NCBI GenBank assembly: GCA_965601665.1
Contig: OZ271833.1
Location: 5,092 to 69,091, forward strand
Direction of reading: 5' to 3'
Origin: Gammaproteobacteria bacterium
Lineage (GTDB): Bacteria; Pseudomonadota; Gammaproteobacteria; Eutrophobiales; Eutrophobiaceae
DNA length: 64,000 nt
Positions 927 through 63,347 of this stretch are shown here, one piece after another (position 1 is the first letter of the stretch; each line of letters opens with the position of its first letter). The position numbers and the translations under genes are program-made. The notes beneath the pieces are model-generated. The model was not told the origin of the DNA. It saw only the letters and a list, made by a program, of their open reading frames with translations, and did no database searches.

Positions 927-1403
927 CTAACCTTCGCTAATTTCATTCATATCAGGGGCAGTCTGCCAAATTCGATAATGCACTTCCGCTGCCTCCGGGA
1001 CATAGACGACAATGGGTAAACGGCTATTGTAACGCACCAGGAAGGGTTCCCCGCCAAGGCTTATAAATCGGTCTACCGATGCCGAATGGGGGTCAACAGC
1101 CATTAATGTGCCAATCATTTGACCAAGGTCAGGGACGATATAACGCGTATAGCCCCAGCCTTCGATGTTTTTCGATTCTATCTTGCCGGAAAAGAAATAG
1201 CGGTTTTGTGTGTCGGTTTTTACTGTCTTACCAATAATCAGTTCGACTTGATAGAGAGACTCGTCCTCCTGTTTTGGTAGTTCGAGGACATGCCTTGTCA
1301 TTCCCTGTGCGGCTTGCGGAAAGGCTTTCAAATTGTCTGCCGCATGTGCGGTCAGCATCGTAACGATCATCATGACCAGGGCGAATGTTATTTGTTTGTC
1401 CAT
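927..1403 (-). CDS. eco: ecotin, periplasmic serine-protease inhibitor
   Basis: 158 aa with signal peptide; matches E. coli ecotin, recalled from memory, along its length (PQAAQGM.RHV..LP.QEDES...VELIIGKT...GWGY..Y...RYNSRLPIVVYVP...V.YRIW). Confidence 0.9.
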   Translation of the reverse strand: MDKQITFALVMMIVTMLTAHAADNLKAFPQAAQGMTRHVLELPKQEDESLYQVELIIGKTVKTDTQNRYFFSGKIESKNIEGWGYTRYIVPDLGQMIGTLMAVDPHSASVDRFISLGGEPFLVRYNSRLPIVVYVPEAAEVHYRIWQTAPDMNEISEG

Positions 1404-9904: not shown

Positions 9905-9981
9905 GCGCCTGTAGCTCAACTGGATAGAGTATCGGGCTTCGAACCCGAGGGTTGGGGGTTCGAGTCCCTCCGGGCGCGCCA
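9905..9981 (+). tRNA. tRNA-Arg (anticodon read as UCG), 77 nt including encoded CCA
   Basis: Manual cloverleaf: acceptor GCGCCTG/CGGGCGC, D-arm GCTC..GAGT with GG in loop, anticodon stem TCGGG/CCCGA, loop C-U-UCG-A-A, T-arm GGGGG-TTCGAGT-CCCTC, CCA. The anticodon assignment should be confirmed with tRNAscan-SE. Confidence 0.8.
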
Positions 9982-10146
9982 TCCATAAAACAAGCCACCG
10001 TCAGGTGGTTTTTTTTATGGATTAGTATTGGTGGGACGAGAACGAAGTTCGACAAATCGGCAGGACAGCCGATTTGGGCAGACGCAGTCTGCACGAAGTG
10101 CGAGCTACACGGATGTAGCGAGTCAATCCCTCCGGGCGCGCCAATC
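9937..10146 (+). repeat. 210-bp direct repeat copy 1 (tRNA 3' half from the anticodon loop, plus terminator and about 160 bp downstream; ends with a second 18-nt copy of the tRNA 3' end)
   Basis: identical to 11129..11338. Confidence 0.85.
9991..10016 (+). terminator. rho-independent terminator directly after the tRNA
   Basis: hairpin CCACC-GTCA-GGTGG followed by T8. Confidence 0.7.
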
Positions 10147-10191
10147 GATTAATCAATCGACACTGACCCTATTGATTATCACAGTAAATTC

Positions 10192-10875
10192 TTACGTAAA
10201 TCTATACCGAGAGATGAGACTAAGTAGTGCGGAGAAAAAAAATATTAAAGATGATGGCAAAGGAACGGGTGATACTTCTATACGCATTGCTAATTCAGTA
10301 GCTAGCCCAGAATTGATAGTCCATTCTTCGCCAACAAACCTTTGAGCTATATACTCATCACCACAAGTAGTACCACAGCTATAAGCTCTAAAGTCTTCTT
10401 GAGCAATACGCCAACTACTAAAACCATCGATGGTTTTATTTTCAGCGATGATCCAATATTTTTCGTTTTCATTTAGTAGTGTCGTGTTTGTCCAATGAAA
10501 TTCGTACAAGGGCCAAGGGAATATTTGTTCTATTGTTGTTGGAGAAGAAATTTCTAAAATCGAACCTGGACTATTGTTATTATCATTCCATATCGACAGC
10601 TCAATTTCACTTTCATTTAAAAAACTACTCTCTGTGAAAGGCGCAATGATCTTGTCTAAATAGCCAGAAGCGGTTGGTATAAATTGCATGCCTGCTTGAA
10701 ATGGAGATGCATTTTCGCGAAACCACTCTGTGCCAGGGCCTGCAACAGCAAAGCCTCCGCGTACAGGGTTCGGAATAGTTGTCATAGTATTATCAAACAC
10801 TACCAAAGCTGCATCTGCTTTGGACGAAAAAAGCAATAAGATTAAAAGAAACTTAAAGCTGTCTTTCGCTTTCAT
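10192..10875 (-). CDS. secreted protein with PEP-CTERM-like (VPLP-type) C-terminal sorting signal
   Basis: signal peptide; C-terminus PVPLPSSLIFFFSALLSLISRYRFT has a proline motif, a TM helix and a basic tail; AT-rich cassette between tRNA-half repeats. Confidence 0.5.
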   Translation of the reverse strand: MKAKDSFKFLLILLLFSSKADAALVVFDNTMTTIPNPVRGGFAVAGPGTEWFRENASPFQAGMQFIPTASGYLDKIIAPFTESSFLNESEIELSIWNDNNNSPGSILEISSPTTIEQIFPWPLYEFHWTNTTLLNENEKYWIIAENKTIDGFSSWRIAQEDFRAYSCGTTCGDEYIAQRFVGEEWTINSGLATELAMRIEVSPVPLPSSLIFFFSALLSLISRYRFT

Positions 10876-11128
10876 GACTTGAGCATTAATCTCATATAGA
10901 TATAAAAGATAAGCATAATCTAGCTGCGTGTCATAATTGTTACAAACTGAATTTTAATAACGCTAGAGTCGATGATTTCATGCTTATACTATTATCCGCT
11001 TCTGGCCGATTTTTGACAAAAACTATGCAGCTAGATTGTGACTTATTTAGGCTTACTGTAGCTTTTCTTATAATATTGCGAGCGTTGCAAGTAGTTGAAA
11101 GTAATAAGATTGACTAATATTAGTTCCC

Positions 11129-11338
11129 CTTCGAACCCGAGGGTTGGGGGTTCGAGTCCCTCCGGGCGCGCCATCCATAAAACAAGCCACCGTCAGGTGG
11201 TTTTTTTTATGGATTAGTATTGGTGGGACGAGAACGAAGTTCGACAAATCGGCAGGACAGCCGATTTGGGCAGACGCAGTCTGCACGAAGTGCGAGCTAC
11301 ACGGATGTAGCGAGTCAATCCCTCCGGGCGCGCCAATC
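11129..11338 (+). repeat. 210-bp direct repeat copy 2 (tRNA-Arg 3' half plus downstream block); att-like
   Basis: identical to 9937..10146; preceded by the conserved arm (about 11076..11128). Confidence 0.85.
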
Positions 11339-11512
11339 ATACCAAAAGTTTAATGTAGTCTTATCCACTTATCGTCAATGACATGGTGGTTTGGCTGAGT
11401 TTCGTCCCGTGTTACTAGCACGGGGCATCTTGGTGCTCTCAATCGCTCGTATCCTCGCTCTGAATCGCACTAGATGCATACGAGAAATAAACATAAAAAA
11501 CAGTATTATTGA

Positions 11513-12100
11513 TTAAGGCTTTACAATTAAATGACAAAATAATGAAACTCCATCATATATTCTTTCAACTACTATTTGTTTAGATAAGGCAGATTGATCT
11601 GGTATTAATGAATCTGGATCATAAATAAAGAAAATCAGATTTCTACATGTAGGGTTATGCCTATAAGTTTCAATATCATCATGAAGTTCTTTTGTTATAT
11701 TTTTTCCATGGGAAGCATCTCTTATATATTTTACTTCAATAATAGTTTTTGCAGATGGGCTAATGAAATCTTTTATGGTGAATCTATTTGCAACTTTATC
11801 GGTAGGATTTTCTGGTGTTAGATCAAGTACCCAAGGCCTGAGCATTATATACAAAGCGTCTTGCACTGCTGCTTCAGAATCAAGTGTAAGTACTGTTTTT
11901 GTACTCCTGCGAGTATTCAAATACCGTACAACTTCTTGAAATTGTTCAAGCGCTGCAATAATTTGTGAAGTCTTTACAGTTCCAGCTTCTTCAGCATTGG
12001 GTTCAGATGAATGCTTTTTTGACAGTGTTGAAACAGCATTAGCTAATGCTGGTAAAGTTGATATATCAATCATCATTATTGCCTGAAACATCTCTGCCAA
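11513..12100 (-). CDS. hypothetical protein with a candidate PD-(D/E)xK nuclease motif
   Basis: 195 aa; D(FISPSAKTII)EVK fits D-x10-E-x-K; overlaps the upstream gene by 35 nt (operon); AT-rich cassette. Confidence 0.4.
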   Translation of the reverse strand: MAEMFQAIMMIDISTLPALANAVSTLSKKHSSEPNAEEAGTVKTSQIIAALEQFQEVVRYLNTRRSTKTVLTLDSEAAVQDALYIMLRPWVLDLTPENPTDKVANRFTIKDFISPSAKTIIEVKYIRDASHGKNITKELHDDIETYRHNPTCRNLIFFIYDPDSLIPDQSALSKQIVVERIYDGVSLFCHLIVKP

Positions 12101-12752
12101 AAATATAGCGAGCTATATCTTCAAAAATATATTCATAATCTCTTCTGCTTTTGTTTTCAGGTAAATGAATATGTAAATCAATATGAAACTGCGGACTATT
12201 GTCTTGACCAGGTGGATTATTTAAACCTGTTGCTCCAGAGTTTTGAGTACTAGAGGAGTTTACAGGTGCTATGCTTGCTCCAAAATCAGCATAATCACAT
12301 ATAGCTTTGAAAGTAGATATTTGATATTGAATAGCTCTGTCGCTACCACCTGAATGAACATTAAAATAATTTTTTAACGTATCATCAGACTCTCTATGAG
12401 GTTCATGTGAATTCTCAAAAATCGGTGCCCAGCAATTTTTTATTCCTTGAGCTAATATGCCTGGCCCAGATTCTGGCATCATAAACTGCTTATATTGATC
12501 TGTAGGTTCACCAGTTGAAGTTAATAAACCAACATTTTTGATAACTCGAAGTATTGTTGCATCGTTTGAATTTCTTAAACCCCATGACTTCAATGTCTCT
12601 CCTGTGATTTTGGTGGGTTTAGGTTTGGTTGGTACTAACTCTAAAAACCTTCTCAATGAGTTTGGGACGGTTGTATATGGAAATTTCGGGGTTGATATGC
12701 TTTCAGAACTTTTACTCCTTGTTTTCTTTTTAGCTACTTTTTTCTTTGCCAT
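12066..12752 (-). CDS. hypothetical protein with Lys-rich N-terminus (MAKKKVAKKKTRSK), partner of the nuclease-like gene
   Basis: 228-aa ORF, no recognisable domain; co-oriented and overlapping with 11513..12100. Confidence 0.4.
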   Translation of the reverse strand: MAKKKVAKKKTRSKSSESISTPKFPYTTVPNSLRRFLELVPTKPKPTKITGETLKSWGLRNSNDATILRVIKNVGLLTSTGEPTDQYKQFMMPESGPGILAQGIKNCWAPIFENSHEPHRESDDTLKNYFNVHSGGSDRAIQYQISTFKAICDYADFGASIAPVNSSSTQNSGATGLNNPPGQDNSPQFHIDLHIHLPENKSRRDYEYIFEDIARYIFGRDVSGNNDD

Positions 12753-17722: not shown

Positions 17723-18008
17723 ACAACACTCCGTTAATAAATAAACAAAAAGGAGCGGCGAAATTAAGAGTATTTATGTCAAAAAGATGTGTAAGAAATG
17801 GCTAAATTAAATCAAATTATTGATACCTGGATTGTAGTCTTTGTGTCACATTTCCTGTTAATGTTAACTTATTGATAATTATGAAGAATAATAATCTTTG
17901 AGCGTAATATATCAGCGCTTTATTTAGCGCCCTTTTTTACAATGATCTGAACAACGGAACCAACCATTTTAAAGTGACACCCAGTAGCTGCTTTATTACA
18001 CTTACATT

Positions 18009-18365
18009 ATGGATACAGAGGGCTTGAGTGAGCATATCTGTGCTCAGCTACAAATACTGGCACCGCAGATTAATGATGCCAGCTTGCTTGTTGAAGAGTG
18101 TCTTGCCAATGCAAGAAAATATTTAACGGACGATTTCATTGTAATGCTCAGTCCTCTTGCATGGGCAAAAATTACACTTACCTACCATAAACACTTTCTT
18201 GATAGTGGTGTTGACATCAGTATTGCAGAAATTATCACCGCTGTACTTCGCGATTCAATAACTACTAATAGAATGGATATGGTGACTTTATCTTTGGCAC
18301 AGCAGGCGCAGGAGATGAACAGGTCTGATGCTTCTACGCCCTCGCTTAAAGTCGTCAAAGAATAG
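18009..18365 (+). CDS. hypothetical protein
   Basis: 118-aa ORF, no recognisable domain. Confidence 0.35.
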   Translation: MDTEGLSEHICAQLQILAPQINDASLLVEECLANARKYLTDDFIVMLSPLAWAKITLTYHKHFLDSGVDISIAEIITAVLRDSITTNRMDMVTLSLAQQAQEMNRSDASTPSLKVVKE

Positions 18366-18366
18366 T

Positions 18367-19416
18367 TTAATTTAACCCATCCATTATTCCATTCTTGTTC
18401 GCATTGATTGTTTTAAGATAGTCAGCGTAGCCCAGAAATTCCTTTTCGTAACACTCCAGTGCCTTACGCAAATCATTGTCAGCAATTATCGGAGATAATG
18501 CCCGCGCCAGCACGTTACAGTTCCATAAGCCGATAACAGGTTGCTCTCCAAACGCGTAGCGTCCTTTCTCATCATTACTGCTGCTCACAAAGTTCGTATC
18601 GTGGTTCTCGGTAAAACTTGCTTCACCAAGATCCAGCGTGATCCCCAGTATGGATTGATTATCGGTATTCATCATGCCATGCGTGAAGCCAACATGTTGC
18701 CAATGAGCAATCAAACGCGCGGTACGTTTAACAACCTCTGAAAAAAAGTCTGCGTACTTATTTTTTTCATCATGAATGCAGTCTGAATAATAATAGTGGA
18801 TGACATAATCTGTTAATTGTGTGAGTGCCGCAGTATTTCGTTGAAAATAATAATTCTCAAAAGTACCAAAACGAATGAAGCCTGGGGCGACACGCGTAAT
18901 GATGGCCGCAGGCTCAAATTGACCTCTATAAACCTGTTCCTTGCCCGATATAACGCACAGGCTATGTGTACATGGCACGCCGAGCTTGATTAATTGCTGG
19001 CTTAAGTCGAATTCTCGTAAGCAACCGCTCAAGCTGGCACGGCCGTCAAAGTCTCGTGAGTAAGGTGTTTGTCCTGCGCCTTTCAGATGACATTCCCAAA
19101 AACCGGTTTCATTTTCTGTATCGAATAACAATATGGCCCGGCCATCGCCGAGCATCGGGTTGAAGTTGCCTAGCTGATGGCCTGCATAATCCTGTGCTAA
19201 TGGTTTGCTATCAGGAATTATCTTGTTCCCGCTAAACACCTGTAGAAATAGATCTGACTCGGTTTCATCTGCCGATAACCCTAACAATGTTGCCGTAATT
19301 GAATTAACAGTTTCGAACTCAGGATCGGTTAAACCCTGTGGCTGGAATTCGCAGTAGAAATGGTCGCCGAGTGAATAAAAGCGGTTTTTTACCGTGAGGT
19401 CTGTGAAAGAACCCAT
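18367..19416 (-). CDS. SelO/YdiU-family protein adenylyltransferase homologue, C-terminally short (349 aa against about 480)
   Basis: PLAQDYAGHQLGNFNPMLGDGRAILL and GFTHGMMNTDNQSILGITLD match SelO kinase-like core; ends near the position equivalent to about aa 365 of E. coli YdiU. Confidence 0.65.
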   Translation of the reverse strand: MGSFTDLTVKNRFYSLGDHFYCEFQPQGLTDPEFETVNSITATLLGLSADETESDLFLQVFSGNKIIPDSKPLAQDYAGHQLGNFNPMLGDGRAILLFDTENETGFWECHLKGAGQTPYSRDFDGRASLSGCLREFDLSQQLIKLGVPCTHSLCVISGKEQVYRGQFEPAAIITRVAPGFIRFGTFENYYFQRNTAALTQLTDYVIHYYYSDCIHDEKNKYADFFSEVVKRTARLIAHWQHVGFTHGMMNTDNQSILGITLDLGEASFTENHDTNFVSSSNDEKGRYAFGEQPVIGLWNCNVLARALSPIIADNDLRKALECYEKEFLGYADYLKTINANKNGIMDGLN

Positions 19417-27293: not shown

Positions 27294-28565
27294 GTGAACT
27301 ACATAAAAACAAAACGGAGACTCATTGTTACCGGATTAATGAGTATCCTGTTGTTCGGACAGGCCAATGCAGAAGATGATTTTATTTCTGCCCTGAAGGG
27401 AGGCACGTTTAATTTTCAATCTAACACGCGTTACGAATATATAGATGATGAGTTCAGGGCTGCAGGGAACCAGGAGGCCGATGCCTTAACAACCAGGACG
27501 GCCCTCGGTTACAAAACCGGCGACTTTTACAACCTGTTTGGCTTCCTCGAGTTTGAAAACGTAACGAACATCACCAATGATAAGCAATACAACGATACGC
27601 AAAATGGTTTGACCCAGTTGCCGGTTATTGCCGACCCTGCCGGTACCGAGGTCAACCAGGCCTACCTGGGCATGAAGCTACTGGAAGGTTCGACGGTTAT
27701 CAAAACCGGAAGACAGCAGATTACGCCGCGTAAGGCGCCGTTCCACCGCTTCCTCGGTACAGTCTTATGGCGTCAGAACTACATGATGCAGGATGCGGTG
27801 ACGATCACTAATACGTCGTTGCCTTCTACAAAAATAATGGCTGGATACATATGGAATAACAATTTCATCACTGGTGATGACCGGGACATGAGCGCTCCTA
27901 TTGTTAACGTCCAATACAGTGGCTTTAAGTATGCAAAACTGGAAGGCTACTACTATGATCTTGAATTCGATGATCTTACTGCCTTGTCAACAACGACTTA
28001 TGGTTTCCGCGCCAGTGGTGGTGTCCCTGTTTTCAATGACAAAACAAAGTTTATTTATGCTGGTGAGTATGCCAGACAGGAAGAGGGTGATAATGCCCCG
28101 GTCGCCTACGATGCTGACTACTACCTTGTCGAAGCAGGGTTTAAAATGGGCTTCGACAATGAGTATCTGAAATCAGTATTGTTCAAGGCAAGCTATGAAG
28201 TACTCGGCAGTGACAACGGCGTACAGTCGTTCCGTACACCGCTAGGTACCAACCATGCCTTCCAGGGCTGGGCTGATTTGTTCCTGAACACGCCAGCGGC
28301 TGGTATTGAGGATACTTACTTTACGATTGTTGCCACCGGTAAATACCAGACAAAAATCATACTAAGATACGACATGTTTGAAGCGGATGAGGGTGGCTTT
28401 GATTACGGTGATGAAATCGGTGTCTGGTTTACCAAGAAGTTTGCCAAGAACTACACGTTGGGTATCAAGTATGCCGGTTACATGGGTGATTCCAATGCCG
28501 GAAATGCGCCCAGGTTTGCCGCTGATCTAACCCGGTTCTGGACCTACTTCACGATCGATTTCTAG
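27294..28565 (+). CDS. outer-membrane porin (probably anion-selective) linked to the nitrate-assimilation locus
   Basis: signal peptide, beta-barrel periodicity, C-terminal aromatic (TIDF). Confidence 0.6.
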   Translation: MNYIKTKRRLIVTGLMSILLFGQANAEDDFISALKGGTFNFQSNTRYEYIDDEFRAAGNQEADALTTRTALGYKTGDFYNLFGFLEFENVTNITNDKQYNDTQNGLTQLPVIADPAGTEVNQAYLGMKLLEGSTVIKTGRQQITPRKAPFHRFLGTVLWRQNYMMQDAVTITNTSLPSTKIMAGYIWNNNFITGDDRDMSAPIVNVQYSGFKYAKLEGYYYDLEFDDLTALSTTTYGFRASGGVPVFNDKTKFIYAGEYARQEEGDNAPVAYDADYYLVEAGFKMGFDNEYLKSVLFKASYEVLGSDNGVQSFRTPLGTNHAFQGWADLFLNTPAAGIEDTYFTIVATGKYQTKIILRYDMFEADEGGFDYGDEIGVWFTKKFAKNYTLGIKYAGYMGDSNAGNAPRFAADLTRFWTYFTIDF

Positions 28566-58721: not shown

Positions 58722-59576
58722 ATGGCCGCGCCAGCGCAAAAGCAGCAATACAACCATAACAAGCTACACAAGCGACTGCGTCGCAACGTGGGCAAGGCGA
58801 TTGCAGATTACAACATGATCGAGCAGGGTGATCGCGTCATGGTATGTTTATCTGGAGGCGCGGATTCCTACACCATGCTTGATGTCCTGCTAAGCATGCA
58901 GAAAACGGCGCCGGTCGACTTTGAACTGGTCGCCGTTAACCTGGATCAGAAGCAGCCTGACTTTCCTGAACATGTGTTGCCTGCTTACCTGGATGAGCTT
59001 GGCATCGATTACCACATACTTGAAGAAGACACTTATAGTGTAGTGAAGCGCGTTATTCCCGAGAATAAAACGTTTTGTGGTCTTTGTTCTCGCTTGCGCC
59101 GCGGAGTACTGTACCGGTTTGCTAAAGAACAGGGTTTTACCAAAATTGCGCTGGGCCATCATCGTGAAGATATTATCGAGACGCTGTTTCTCAACATGTT
59201 TTATGGTGGCAAGCTAAAATCGATGCCACCCAAATTGAAGAGCGATGATGGTGAAAATATCGTAATTCGTCCATTGGCGTACTGCGCTGAAAAAGATATC
59301 AAGGCCTATGCAGAAGCACAGCAATTTCCGATTATTCCTTGCAACCTTTGTGGGTCGCAGGACAACCTGCAACGCCAGGCTATCAAGCAAATGCTGTCTG
59401 AATGGGGGCGCAAACATCCTGGCCGGGTACAAACTATTTTTTCCAGTCTGCAAAACATTGTGCCTTCTCACTTGCTCGATACCAACGCCTATGACTTCAA
59501 GCATTTCGCCCGGGATGATGCATCCACGCCCGATGGCGGTGCGTGGTTGCTTGGCAAGCAAGACCAGCAACAATAA
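58722..59576 (+). CDS. ttcA: tRNA 2-thiocytidine(32) synthetase
   Basis: [34 protein letters not shown]-loop and [10 protein letters not shown] Fe-S Cys motifs, full-length similarity to E. coli TtcA, recalled from memory. Confidence 0.9.
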
Positions 59577-59588
59577 GTCCTCACTGCC

Positions 59589-60385
59589 ATGCGAGACCTT
59601 CCTGTTTTGTATCAAATCCTGATCTGGAGCGTGCCGGTACTGTTTGCCATTACGCTACACGAGGTGGGTCATGGCTGGGCTGCCCGGCAACTGGGCGATC
59701 CGACTGCTGAACAGCAGGGCAGGCTGTCACTAAACCCACTGAAACACATTGATCCAATGGGCACGGTTGTCGTACCGCTGATTGCTTTTTTTGTTAGCGG
59801 CTTCATCTTTGGCTGGGCGAAACCGGTACCTGTGAACTGGGCCAGGTTGAGAAACCGTAAACGCGATATCGCGCTGGTCGCGCTGGCAGGGCCTGCAGCC
59901 AATCTGGGCATGATTATCATCTGGTTATTACTCGCCATGCTGTTTATGGACGGTGCTGAACAGCAAAACATCTTTGCCATGGTGGTAGTGTGGATGGCAT
60001 GGGCTGGCATTATCATCAATAGTTTGCTGATGATATTGAACCTCTTTCCCATACCTCCGCTCGATGGCAGCCGCGTAGTGTACGCGATGTTACCTGAACC
60101 AATGGCAAGACAGTATCTGCGACTGGAACCTTATGGTTTGATTATCCTGGTGATATTGTTGGTCAGCGGCATCCTGTACCTCCGCTCGATGGCAGCCGCG
60201 TAGTGTACGCGATGTTACCTGAACCAATGGCAAGACAGTATCTGCGACTGGAACCTTATGGTTTGATTATCCTGGTGATATTGTTGGTCAGCGGCATCCT
60301 GTTCAAAATCATGGGGCCGATACTCATTGGATTTCAGCAGCTGATGTTCTCTTTATTGATCTGGCCCTTGTCATGGACAAAATGA
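59589..60385 (+). pseudogene. M50-family (site-2 protease-like) zinc metalloprotease disrupted by a 125-bp tandem duplication (frameshift; fragments 59589..60203 and 60203..60385)
   Basis: HEVGH zinc site in TM helix; removal of one 125-bp copy restores a continuous 223-aa ORF. Confidence 0.7.
60052..60301 (+). repeat. perfect 2 x 125-bp tandem duplication
   Basis: 60052..60176 identical to 60177..60301, verified base by base. Confidence 0.9.
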
Positions 60386-60450: not shown

Positions 60451-61254
60451 ATGCCAAAATTTGCTACCTTATTTGCCTTACTACTATTCCCGCTCGCCGT
60501 ATTCGCTGTCGATTATAATGAGACCTACCAGGCCTATAAAAATGAGGATTACACCAAGGCACTGGCGGGTTTCACAGAGCTTGCCGAGCGGAACCATATG
60601 AAGGCCCAGTTTTACCTGGGCACGATGTATCGTGAAGGCCTGGGTGTTGAAAAGAGTTATGCCACTTCACTGGAATGGTATCGTAAGGCCGCCGAACATG
60701 GTGAACCAAAGGCCATGCACAACGTGGCAATGTTTTACCACAATGGCATCGTGGTAAAACGTAGTTTCCCAACCGCCGCCGAATGGTATGAACAGGCAGC
60801 CGAAAAGGATTACGTGCCCTCCATGACGAATGTGGCACGCTTGTATTACAAGGGTGATGGCATCGAGAAAGATATTCCGCGTGCTATCCACTGGTGGCAA
60901 CGTGCCGCAGAGTTAGGCAGCAAGGGTGCCCAGCACAATATGGGTCTGATGTATTTCCTGGGCGAGGGTGGCTTTGAAAAAGACTATGCCAGGGCAGCGG
61001 AGTGGTATCGCAAGGCCGCCCAAAACGGTTCCAAGGAAGCGCAGAACAGTTTGGGCACCATGTATTTCGATGGTAACGGTGTCGAAAAAGACATCAACGA
61101 AGCCTATGCCTGGTTTAAACTGGCCGCACGTGCCGAGTTTGAACAAGCTATATTAAACGTGTCTGTCATCGAGGCCAATCTCAACGAAGAAGAATTGGCG
61201 GCAGCGATGGCAAAAGCAGAAGACTACCTGGCAAAATATCCGTCTGAAAAATAA
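60451..61254 (+). CDS. Sel1-repeat (TPR-like) secreted protein
   Basis: signal peptide; six repeats of the ...A..WYRKAAEQG...A...LG.MY..G.GV.KD pattern. Confidence 0.85.
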   Translation: MPKFATLFALLLFPLAVFAVDYNETYQAYKNEDYTKALAGFTELAERNHMKAQFYLGTMYREGLGVEKSYATSLEWYRKAAEHGEPKAMHNVAMFYHNGIVVKRSFPTAAEWYEQAAEKDYVPSMTNVARLYYKGDGIEKDIPRAIHWWQRAAELGSKGAQHNMGLMYFLGEGGFEKDYARAAEWYRKAAQNGSKEAQNSLGTMYFDGNGVEKDINEAYAWFKLAARAEFEQAILNVSVIEANLNEEELAAAMAKAEDYLAKYPSEK

Positions 61255-61423
61255 GGTTTCAGGCTGGCAGCAGGATGCCAGCTTCTAAATAACTGTTGCT
61301 TAAAAGCAGCGAAATCATACTTTTTATGATCTTGCTCTGGCTATGAATTTGCTGATGACTGCTTTTCTGTATCAGCGTATCTTGGCGACATTGTGATAGT
61401 ACTGTTGATTACAAGCATCCGCG

Positions 61424-62332
61424 ATGATTAAAACCCTGCTGCTTTCGCTAGGTTTGTTTCAGGTTAGTTGCCTGGTGTCTGCGGATACCAACTGTGCTGA
61501 TTCCGGTATATCGGTACAGATATTGGGTTCCGGTGGGCCAGAGCTTGATGATGCACGGGCATCCAGTGGTTATATCCTGTGGTATAACGGTAGAGCCAGG
61601 CTGCTTGTTGATATAGGTAGCGGCAGTCTGTTACGTTTCGAACAAAGTGGCGCATCATTGGAAAATCTGGATGCCATTCTCATCAGTCATTTGCACGTCG
61701 ATCACACCAGCGATTTGCCAGCCTTAATCAAGGCGTCGTATTTTACTGAACGTAATCGTGACCTGAACCTGTATGGTCCTGAAGGCAATGCGTTAATGCC
61801 GTCTACAAGCAGCTTCATTCAAGGACTGTTCGGCCCGGATGGTGTTTACCGTTATCTACGTCAATATCTTTCCGGCGTCGAAGATTACCGGCTGATACCG
61901 AATGATATTGATATCAAGAATAAATCAGCACAGCTTGTCATTTCTGACAGTAGCTATCAGGTTCATGCCTTATCCGTGCATCATGGGCCGTTACCGGCTT
62001 TGGCCTGGCGGGTGAACATAGACGGTAAACGAATTGTGTTCAGTGGCGATATGAACAATGAATACGGCACTTTATCTGGATTTGCAAAAAATGCAGACAT
62101 GCTGATAGCACATCATGCTATTCCTGAAGGCGCCAGTGGTGTAGCCAGAAACTTACACATGCCACCATCAGAAATAGGACGCATTGCTAAAGAGGCCGGC
62201 GTCAAGCGTCTTGTTCTATCTCACCGAATGAATCGTTCAATTGGCAAGGAATCATTTACACTCGAGGAAATACGTAAACGTTTTGATGGTGTCGTTAAGT
62301 TTGCCGAAGACTTACAGTGTTACAGTCTATAA
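61424..62332 (+). CDS. secreted MBL-fold metallo-hydrolase
   Basis: signal peptide; HLHVDHTSD (HxHxDH) motif. Confidence 0.75.
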   Translation: MIKTLLLSLGLFQVSCLVSADTNCADSGISVQILGSGGPELDDARASSGYILWYNGRARLLVDIGSGSLLRFEQSGASLENLDAILISHLHVDHTSDLPALIKASYFTERNRDLNLYGPEGNALMPSTSSFIQGLFGPDGVYRYLRQYLSGVEDYRLIPNDIDIKNKSAQLVISDSSYQVHALSVHHGPLPALAWRVNIDGKRIVFSGDMNNEYGTLSGFAKNADMLIAHHAIPEGASGVARNLHMPPSEIGRIAKEAGVKRLVLSHRMNRSIGKESFTLEEIRKRFDGVVKFAEDLQCYSL

Positions 62333-62399
62333 TTCATTAATTGAGCTAAATAAAACGTATTGTCTTTGTATTTTTATCCTGATTTTACAGGAATAAATC

Positions 62400-62843
62400 A
62401 TGTATGGTTGGGTTTTACTTTTTCATGTACTGGGGGCGACCATATGGACAGGCGGGCATATTGTTTTAAGTGTCGTCATTCTGCCAAAAGTGCTACGCGA
62501 GAAATCGCCGGAAAAACTGATTGAATTTGAGTCAGTCTACGAGAAAATTGGCATGCCAGCACTCATTATACAGATACTTAGTGGATTATATCTTGCCAAA
62601 GCCATGATCCCCGACGTCTCTGCATGGTTTGATCTTGACCAATCAGTATCGCGTGTTGTTTTGATCAAGTTAGCGTTGCTAATGCTAACCTTTGCATTTG
62701 CATTAGACGCAAAGTTAAGAGTAATACCAAAATTGAATGAAGATAATCTGACAGATATGGCGTTTCATATTATTCCTGTAACAGTATTATCAATTCTGTT
62801 TGTAATCACCGGGGTTTCTTTTCGAACTGGATGGTTTTATTAG
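62400..62843 (+). CDS. 4-TM membrane protein of unknown function
   Basis: hydrophobicity pattern only. Confidence 0.4.
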   Translation: MYGWVLLFHVLGATIWTGGHIVLSVVILPKVLREKSPEKLIEFESVYEKIGMPALIIQILSGLYLAKAMIPDVSAWFDLDQSVSRVVLIKLALLMLTFAFALDAKLRVIPKLNEDNLTDMAFHIIPVTVLSILFVITGVSFRTGWFY

Positions 62844-62894
62844 TTTGTAGTTTAAATAGCCGAAACAGCAATCAATCGTATTGACAAACGTAAT

Positions 62895-63347
62895 ATGCAT
62901 ATCTGGATCGATGCCGATGCCTGCCCCGGAGTAATCAAGGACATCCTGTTTCGTGCATCTGAACGCAGCGGCATTCCATTAACACTGGTAGCAAACCACG
63001 TGCTATCGCATCCCCGTTCGTCACTTATCAGGATGCTGGTGGTATCGCATGGTTTTGATGTGGCAGACAACGAGATTGTGCGGCAGGTCAATCATGGCGA
63101 TCTGGTTATTACCAGTGATATTCCGTTGGCTGCTGAGGTAATTAACAAGGGTGCCCTGGCACTTAATCCTCGTGGCGAACTTTACACGACAGACACGATA
63201 AAGGCACGATTGACCATGCGTGATTTTATGGATACGTTGCGTTCAAGCGGTATACAAACAGGCGGACCGTCTTCATTGAACCAGCGTGACAGGCAACGAT
63301 TTGCCAATCAGCTGGATAAATGGTTACAACAGGCAAACCGACAATGA
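62895..63347 (+). CDS. yaiI: UPF0178 protein YaiI (DUF188)
   Basis: [21 protein letters not shown]...[12 protein letters not shown]...[14 protein letters not shown]...[21 protein letters not shown] aligns along full length with E. coli YaiI, recalled from memory. Confidence 0.85.

Follow-up and report, generated by a model that had tools for sequence, protein, structure and literature searches.

Reversible tandem duplications inside reading frames have been described for the pneumococcal genes cap3A, cap8E/wchA, and tts (Waite et al. 2001, 2003, cited in PMC4243769 and PMC4022640), and intragenic duplication is listed among the classes of localised hypermutation (PMC4235727). As the citing papers portray them, the pneumococcal loci are marked by many independent duplications, the occurrence of both alleles, measured switching, and a selectable capsule phenotype. 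The 64-kb stretch of DNA analysed here (the window) contains a gene for a protease of the M50 family that is interrupted in a similar way, by a perfect tandem duplication within the ORF whose length is not divisible by 3, which truncates the product and from which precise reversion is possible. Unlike the cap3A type, however, it was seen once, in one assembly, and neither a second allele nor recurrence was found in the collections and orthologous loci described below. Simple-sequence repeat (SSR) contingency loci, which vary by slipped-strand mispairing, are alike in that the copy number of a repeat produces a reversible frameshift, but their units measure 1-7 nt, are present in many copies, and change at high rates in both directions, whereas the locus described here is a unique coding segment of 125 nt present twice, without any SSR. 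The duplication is of an already-known kind and is not a new type of element or switch; since reversible intragenic duplications have been described before, even the most favourable reading would make it another instance of that kind.

Exact direct duplications also arise during genome assembly. Assemblers have been documented to duplicate the start and end of circular contigs (Wick & Holt, PMC6966772), and in that benchmark of circularisation Flye loses tens of bases while Canu and NextDenovo duplicate thousands. Such overlap and join artefacts resemble the present case in being exact direct duplications with arbitrary breakpoints in otherwise correct sequence. They differ in lying at contig ends, unless the contig was later rotated or joined, and in their sizes, which are mostly tens or thousands of bases.

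The interrupted gene is related to the M50 or site-2 proteases represented by 3B4R, SpoIVFB, and RseP, with which it shares an HExxH motif in a membrane helix, an N..P...LDG motif, the Pfam domain PF02163, and structural matches to 3b4r and 8vjl. The subgroup to which it belongs consists of small "Zn-dependent proteases" of ~216 aa without PDZ or CBS domains. The copy in the window is unlike the described proteases in lacking the last helix, and its reconstructed ORF runs beyond the conserved stop.

Structure of the duplication

The segments at 60052-60176 and 60177-60301 do not differ at any position (0/125) and form two copies of a 125-bp unit (Table 1). Tandem Repeats Finder (TRF) reports the repeat as 60052-60302 with a period of 125, 2.0 copies, 100% matches, and a score of 502, while its other rows in the 64 kb have periods of 12-18 bp and scores of 41-53, leaving the 125-bp repeat as the sole one of its kind. 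A perfect 125-bp tandem duplication at 60052-60301 had been proposed in a first-pass annotation of this DNA, and both the base-by-base comparison and TRF confirm it. A 49-nt probe of the unit had no match in 100 dinucleotide-preserving shuffles, so chance does not explain the repeat. The unit is found at these two positions only in the window, and a dispersed repeat or mobile element was therefore rejected as its origin.

The duplication starts at the codon for I155, inside the NLFPIPPLDG motif. The new junction, between 60176 and 60177, reads …GGCATCCTG/TACCTCCG… (also written GGCATCCTG/TACCTCCGCTCG), and the single-copy sequence would read CTCTTTCCCA-TACCTCC…GGCATCCTG-TTCAAAATC. The match between the copies extends 1 bp rightward (T 60177 = T 60302) and 0 bp leftward, which sets the microhomology at the junction at 1 bp. 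A slippage hot spot was considered and rejected: besides this short microhomology, the nearest longer direct repeats, of 12 nt (CTGATGATATTG / CTGGTGATATTG), are spaced 120 bp apart and are thus out of register with the 125-bp unit, and no hairpin was found at the breakpoints of the duplication. TRF and a repeat scan likewise found no simple-sequence repeat in or near the M50 gene. The gene does contain a perfect 9-bp tandem repeat (TCGCGCTGG x2) at 59869-59886, which encodes part of an invariant ALVALAG; this repeat is in frame and orthologues have it too, so it is not a variable tract.

Table 1. Coordinates of the duplicated unit and of the M50 gene features it affects, numbered along the window
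Feature	Position	Strand	Description	Source
Truncated M50/site-2-protease-family ORF	59589..60203	+	204 aa: 196 native + YLRSMAAA + stop	ORF list
HEVGH zinc-binding/catalytic motif, residues 24-28	59658..59672	+	Retained	Sequence
NLFPIPPLDG, residues 151-160, with third zinc ligand Asp159	60039..60068	+	Retained in frame	Sequence
Copy 1 of 125-bp unit	60052..60176	+	Native reading frame; ends at codon boundary, residue 196	TRF and sequence
Copy 2 of 125-bp unit	60177..60301	+	100% identical; out of frame for ribosomes from copy 1	
Premature TAG stop from frameshift	60201..60203	+	Last base is the first of the downstream ORF's GTG (TAGTG)	
60-codon ORF, remnant 3' end of gene	60203..60385	+	Native frame	ORF list

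Family membership and predicted structure of the protease

Assignment of the gene to the M50 family, which the first-pass annotation had given together with an HEVGH active site, is borne out by a match to PF02163 (Peptidase_M50) of 37.7 bits (E = 1.8e-9; gathering cut-off 27.2) and by the HEVGH motif itself at residues 24-28. PF02163 is present in every homologue among the matches listed. In an alignment of 36 homologues, H24, E25, and H28 are invariant, as are N151, P154, P156, P157, L158, D159, and G160, and NLFPIPPLDG aligns with the LDG motif of RseP (7w6x/7w6y). HEVGH lies inside the first membrane helix, predicted at residues 6-34.

An AlphaFold model of the closest intact orthologue (P0001) is of good confidence, with a pLDDT of 87 and a pTM of 0.81. 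Its best Foldseek matches in the PDB are 3b4r (the M. jannaschii S2P) and 8vjl (SpoIVFB), the former with a probability of 1.00 and a TM score of 0.45, which is moderate. The last helix of the model is predicted to span residues 195-213, and the frameshift at residue 196 removes exactly that helix. The lost segment holds G201, P202, and I215, each at least 90% conserved. In the mjS2P structure the terminal helices are involved in substrate gating.

Effect of the duplication on the gene

A unit of 125 bp is not a whole number of codons, and the reading frame of the M50 gene therefore shifts at the junction. The first-pass annotation had given this frameshift as ending the protein 8 codons into the second copy and had described the original C-terminus as surviving in a separate 60-aa ORF, and both statements hold: the TAG follows YLRSMAAA directly, and the downstream ORF lies in the native frame of copy 2, where it corresponds to residues ~164-223 of the reconstructed protein, last helix included. 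With one copy deleted in silico, the ORF is again 223 aa long and can be aligned with orthologues over its whole length. Whether real or artefactual, the duplication calls for annotation of the locus as one gene, for a 223-aa M50 protease disrupted by 125 duplicated bp, and not as two separate genes.

The 204-aa product keeps both catalytic motifs, and its sole loss is the last conserved predicted transmembrane helix. The same annotation had called the event inactivating. Absence of that helix, from residue 197 onward, speaks for this, but with HEVGH and N..P...LDG both kept it is overstated as fact. Since a conserved transmembrane helix is missing, the truncated product is probably non-functional or badly impaired, and from its sequence loss of function appears likely.

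It could be argued that the duplication is real and yet not a null mutation, with 2 polypeptides, one consisting of residues 1-196 plus 8 further residues and the other a C-terminal piece of 57-60 aa, reassembling into a working split protease. Synthesis of the second piece would depend on re-initiation at the overlapping TAGTG stop/start or at an ATG 9 nt downstream, and the sequence does offer both, since the TAG at 60201-60203 overlaps a GTG at 60203 and an in-frame ATG is present at 60212. All catalytic residues are in the N-terminal fragment, and the downstream ORF encodes the complete missing helix together with a duplicate of the preceding one. We nevertheless regard a split protease as very improbable. 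No Shine-Dalgarno-like sequence is found upstream of the 60203..60385 ORF, and the public collection has no protein call that matches its 60-aa peptide exactly. Given the native codons CGC GTA GTG, the TAGTG overlap was bound to arise, and it is thus a coincidence of the frameshift.

The end of the gene carries another difference from its orthologues. The reconstructed M50 ORF extends 7 codons (WPLSWTK) beyond their conserved stop (window 60360-60385), and the orthologous TGA is TGG here (ATCTGATCC to ATCTGGCCC). This change of TGA to TGG and the WPLSWTK tail it opens point to a second, older change at the same end of the gene.

Ancestral state and age

The first-pass annotation had proposed comparing orthologues for a single-copy form, and this form is what all available relatives contain. 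The nearest of these are three contigs encoding P0001 (L001-L003) and one metagenome contig (L084), which share 89-90% DNA identity and 95% protein identity with the window; 4/4 are single-copy. The orthologue alignment has a clean 125-column gap at the duplication, and in BLAST searches against the relatives the window yields two HSPs, both of which include the same ~130-bp stretch of the subject. A metagenome scan with a 29-nt probe, able to detect either allele, returned a single contig, the metagenome contig named above, which is single-copy and belongs to another species, and a scan of the genome collection gave relatives of at most 69% identity among the matches listed. Nearly all of the best 120 homologues listed are 215-216 aa long, and none of these 120 has a similar truncation. 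No comparable repeat was found by TRF in the 84 orthologous loci (0/84; 0.52 Mb). With a single copy in all available relatives, the ancestral state is single-copy and the duplication is unique to this assembly.

Comparison of the reconstructed gene with that of L001 over 216 codons gave a dN/dS of 0.054 at a dS of 0.42, and the lost tail alone also has a dN/dS of about 0.05, on few sites. A ratio this low at such a dS indicates that the M50 gene has been under strong purifying selection and was functional through essentially all of the divergence. Together with the absence of any difference between the copies (0/125), this places the duplication as very recent on the scale of the divergence. 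An earlier suggestion that the event was very recent is in this way upheld by the single-copy ancestry, by the contrast of dN/dS 0.05 with dS 0.42, and by the identity of the copies.

Spontaneous mutation or assembly artefact

The event has one of two explanations, an ordinary mutation of recent date or an error in the assembly. To the first of these, a genuine, very recent, and spontaneous tandem duplication in this lineage that was not programmed in any way, we give an even chance. From the structure of the junction we infer a slippage mechanism, in which a nascent strand would have moved 125 bp upstream during replication and primed synthesis anew at 1 bp of microhomology, either by illegitimate strand slippage or by sister-strand misalignment, and 60052-60176 would then have been copied a second time. 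Translation of the M50 gene would shift frame at residue 196 and stop 8 codons on, and the product would retain the catalytic motifs without the conserved last transmembrane helix. Precise reversion would be possible by recombination or slippage between the copies, and this reversibility would be a by-product and not an evolved function. Direct repeats that are perfect over 125 bp can be expected to collapse at an appreciable rate, through recombination between the copies or through slippage, which makes the duplicated allele revertible.

We infer that the duplication exists in cells and not in the assembly alone, and the surrounding sequence is consistent with this. Over the 64 kb, the assembly contains neither Ns nor a further repeat of this type. 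The ~45 ORFs of the window are mostly full-length matches to their Pfam profiles, and the neighbours of the M50 gene have the lengths found in relatives. Such clean surroundings argue against a sloppy assembly.

The second possibility, an assembly artefact, which the first-pass annotation had also raised, is that the organism is single-copy and that, in assembly or finishing, two sequence ends sharing 125 bp were strung together without their overlap being merged. This could have come about where a k-mer or read-length overlap was left untrimmed as contigs were joined or a gap was closed, where a contig had been circularised imperfectly and was rotated afterwards, or through an error of local reassembly or polishing. 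We consider an artefact of this sort a serious possibility, though short of an even chance. The copies are perfectly identical, and the gene they disrupt is strongly constrained (dN/dS 0.05) and intact in every relative. A length of 125 is a common, standard Illumina read length and an odd number usable as a k-mer, and so could fit an overlap-join error. The source is moreover one 2.85-Mb contig without an independent replicate: the 204-aa product is identical to a database protein (P0002) on one contig of 2,852,178 bp (NCBI, ENA), P0002 and five other window proteins come from that single contig and never from Logan, and the single-copy 223-aa form is absent from the collection of 15 billion proteins. 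On the other side, though not decisively, the duplication is internal to the window and away from a contig end, so that the artefact route needs an extra rotation or join. No N-run lies near the junction between 60176 and 60177 or elsewhere in the window, and no second artefact of this type or frameshift cluster was found in the 64 kb. Sizes in the circularisation benchmark are tens of bases lost or thousands duplicated, against ~125 bp here (PMC6966772).

Reversibility and phase variation

Since the duplicated allele would be revertible, the locus might be read as an evolved ON/OFF phase switch, in which the M50 gene toggles at high frequency between a duplicated (OFF) and a single-copy (ON) state as a form of adaptive bet-hedging. 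A perfect direct repeat could indeed collapse precisely and restore the gene, and the reversible intragenic duplications documented for pneumococcal cap3A, cap8E, and tts, as these are presented in PMC4243769, provide a precedent. The pattern of occurrence nonetheless argues against a switch. There is no recurrence at the 84 orthologous loci (0/84), no similar truncation among the 120 homologues listed, and no second allele of the strain in the 15-billion-protein collection. The gene has neither an SSR tract nor long flanking homology that would raise the forward rate, that of duplication, and the microhomology is 1 bp. It also encodes a housekeeping-type membrane protease and is not a surface or contingency gene. 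The phase-variable on/off switch suggested in the first-pass annotation thus finds no positive support in the orthologous loci, the listed homologues, or the search for a second allele, and we hold it to be very improbable. Even taken broadly, a duplication that is both real and functional, through a population flipping between OFF and ON or through two complementing fragments linked by TAGTG, has only a slim chance. If true, the OFF/ON or split form would be the first such case in an M50 protease of an environmental gammaproteobacterium.

Genomic context

The window is an ordinary stretch of gammaproteobacterial chromosome, with genes for nitrate and nitrite assimilation, a cbb3 oxidase (ccoNOP with ccoGH), and P-type metal ATPases. 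The best named relatives among the matches listed are MAGs labelled "Gammaproteobacteria bacterium" and "Thiotrichaceae bacterium." A ttcA-like PP-loop gene (58722-59576) ends 12 nt before the M50 gene, and a Sel1-repeat gene (60451-61254) follows it, an arrangement common to the closest relatives only. Conserved ttcA-M50 operon linkage was considered as a clue to function and rejected, since the adjacency occurs in 5/84 loci, all from the closest relatives. The only RNA element in the window is one tRNA (tRNA-Arg), and none was found near the M50 locus.

Between the Sel1 and DUF188 genes (window 61255-62894) are an MBL-fold (Lactamase_B_2) gene at 61424..62332 and a low-GC spacer, with a GC content of 0.37-0.40 at 62150-62900. 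In L001, L002, and L084 the Sel1 gene is directly next to the DUF188 gene, with no MBL gene. Judged from this gene order, the segment is a lineage-specific insertion, ~1 kb from the duplication.

An ORF for SelO (protein adenylyltransferase) at 18367..19416 on the minus strand encodes 349 aa and covers positions 2-328 of a Pfam profile of 466 positions. It looks like a C-terminally truncated gene and is possibly a second damaged gene in the window. The ~640 bp downstream of it (window 17723-19416) are AT-rich, with a GC content of 0.31-0.40, and inspection by eye of three frames revealed no SelO-like frame there. A frameshifted C-terminal remnant of SelO was considered as a sign of error-prone assembly, and none was found.

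The tRNA-Arg(TCG) at 9905-9981 is followed by minus-strand ORFs up to 12752, among them one without a Pfam match (10192..10875), one with a DpnII/MboI-type restriction endonuclease domain (11513..12100), and one with a DUF5343 domain (12066..12752); the region from 9905 to 12752 may be a small island that integrated beside the tRNA. A 418-aa protein encoded at 1643-2899 on the plus strand, in a gene that adjoins an ecotin gene (927..1403), has a Ser/Thr protein kinase domain of the eukaryotic type (residues 18-269) and, at its C-terminus, a c-di-GMP-binding PilZ domain (residues 293-392). This combination of a Ser/Thr kinase and a PilZ domain is uncommon. Two ORFs have no Pfam match at E <= 0.001, at 27294-28565 (plus strand, 423 aa) and 10192-10875 (minus strand, 227 aa), the former located just upstream of an ANTAR response-regulator gene and the cluster of nitrate-assimilation genes.

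Significance

The duplication is of little importance beyond annotation. Should it prove an artefact, the public record would have to be corrected by 125 bp, and P0002, the 204-aa protein, would be a spurious entry. A real duplication would give this strain a fresh, revertible, and probably null allele of a conserved small M50 protease, which as a natural knock-out would be mildly useful for the study of this protein family.
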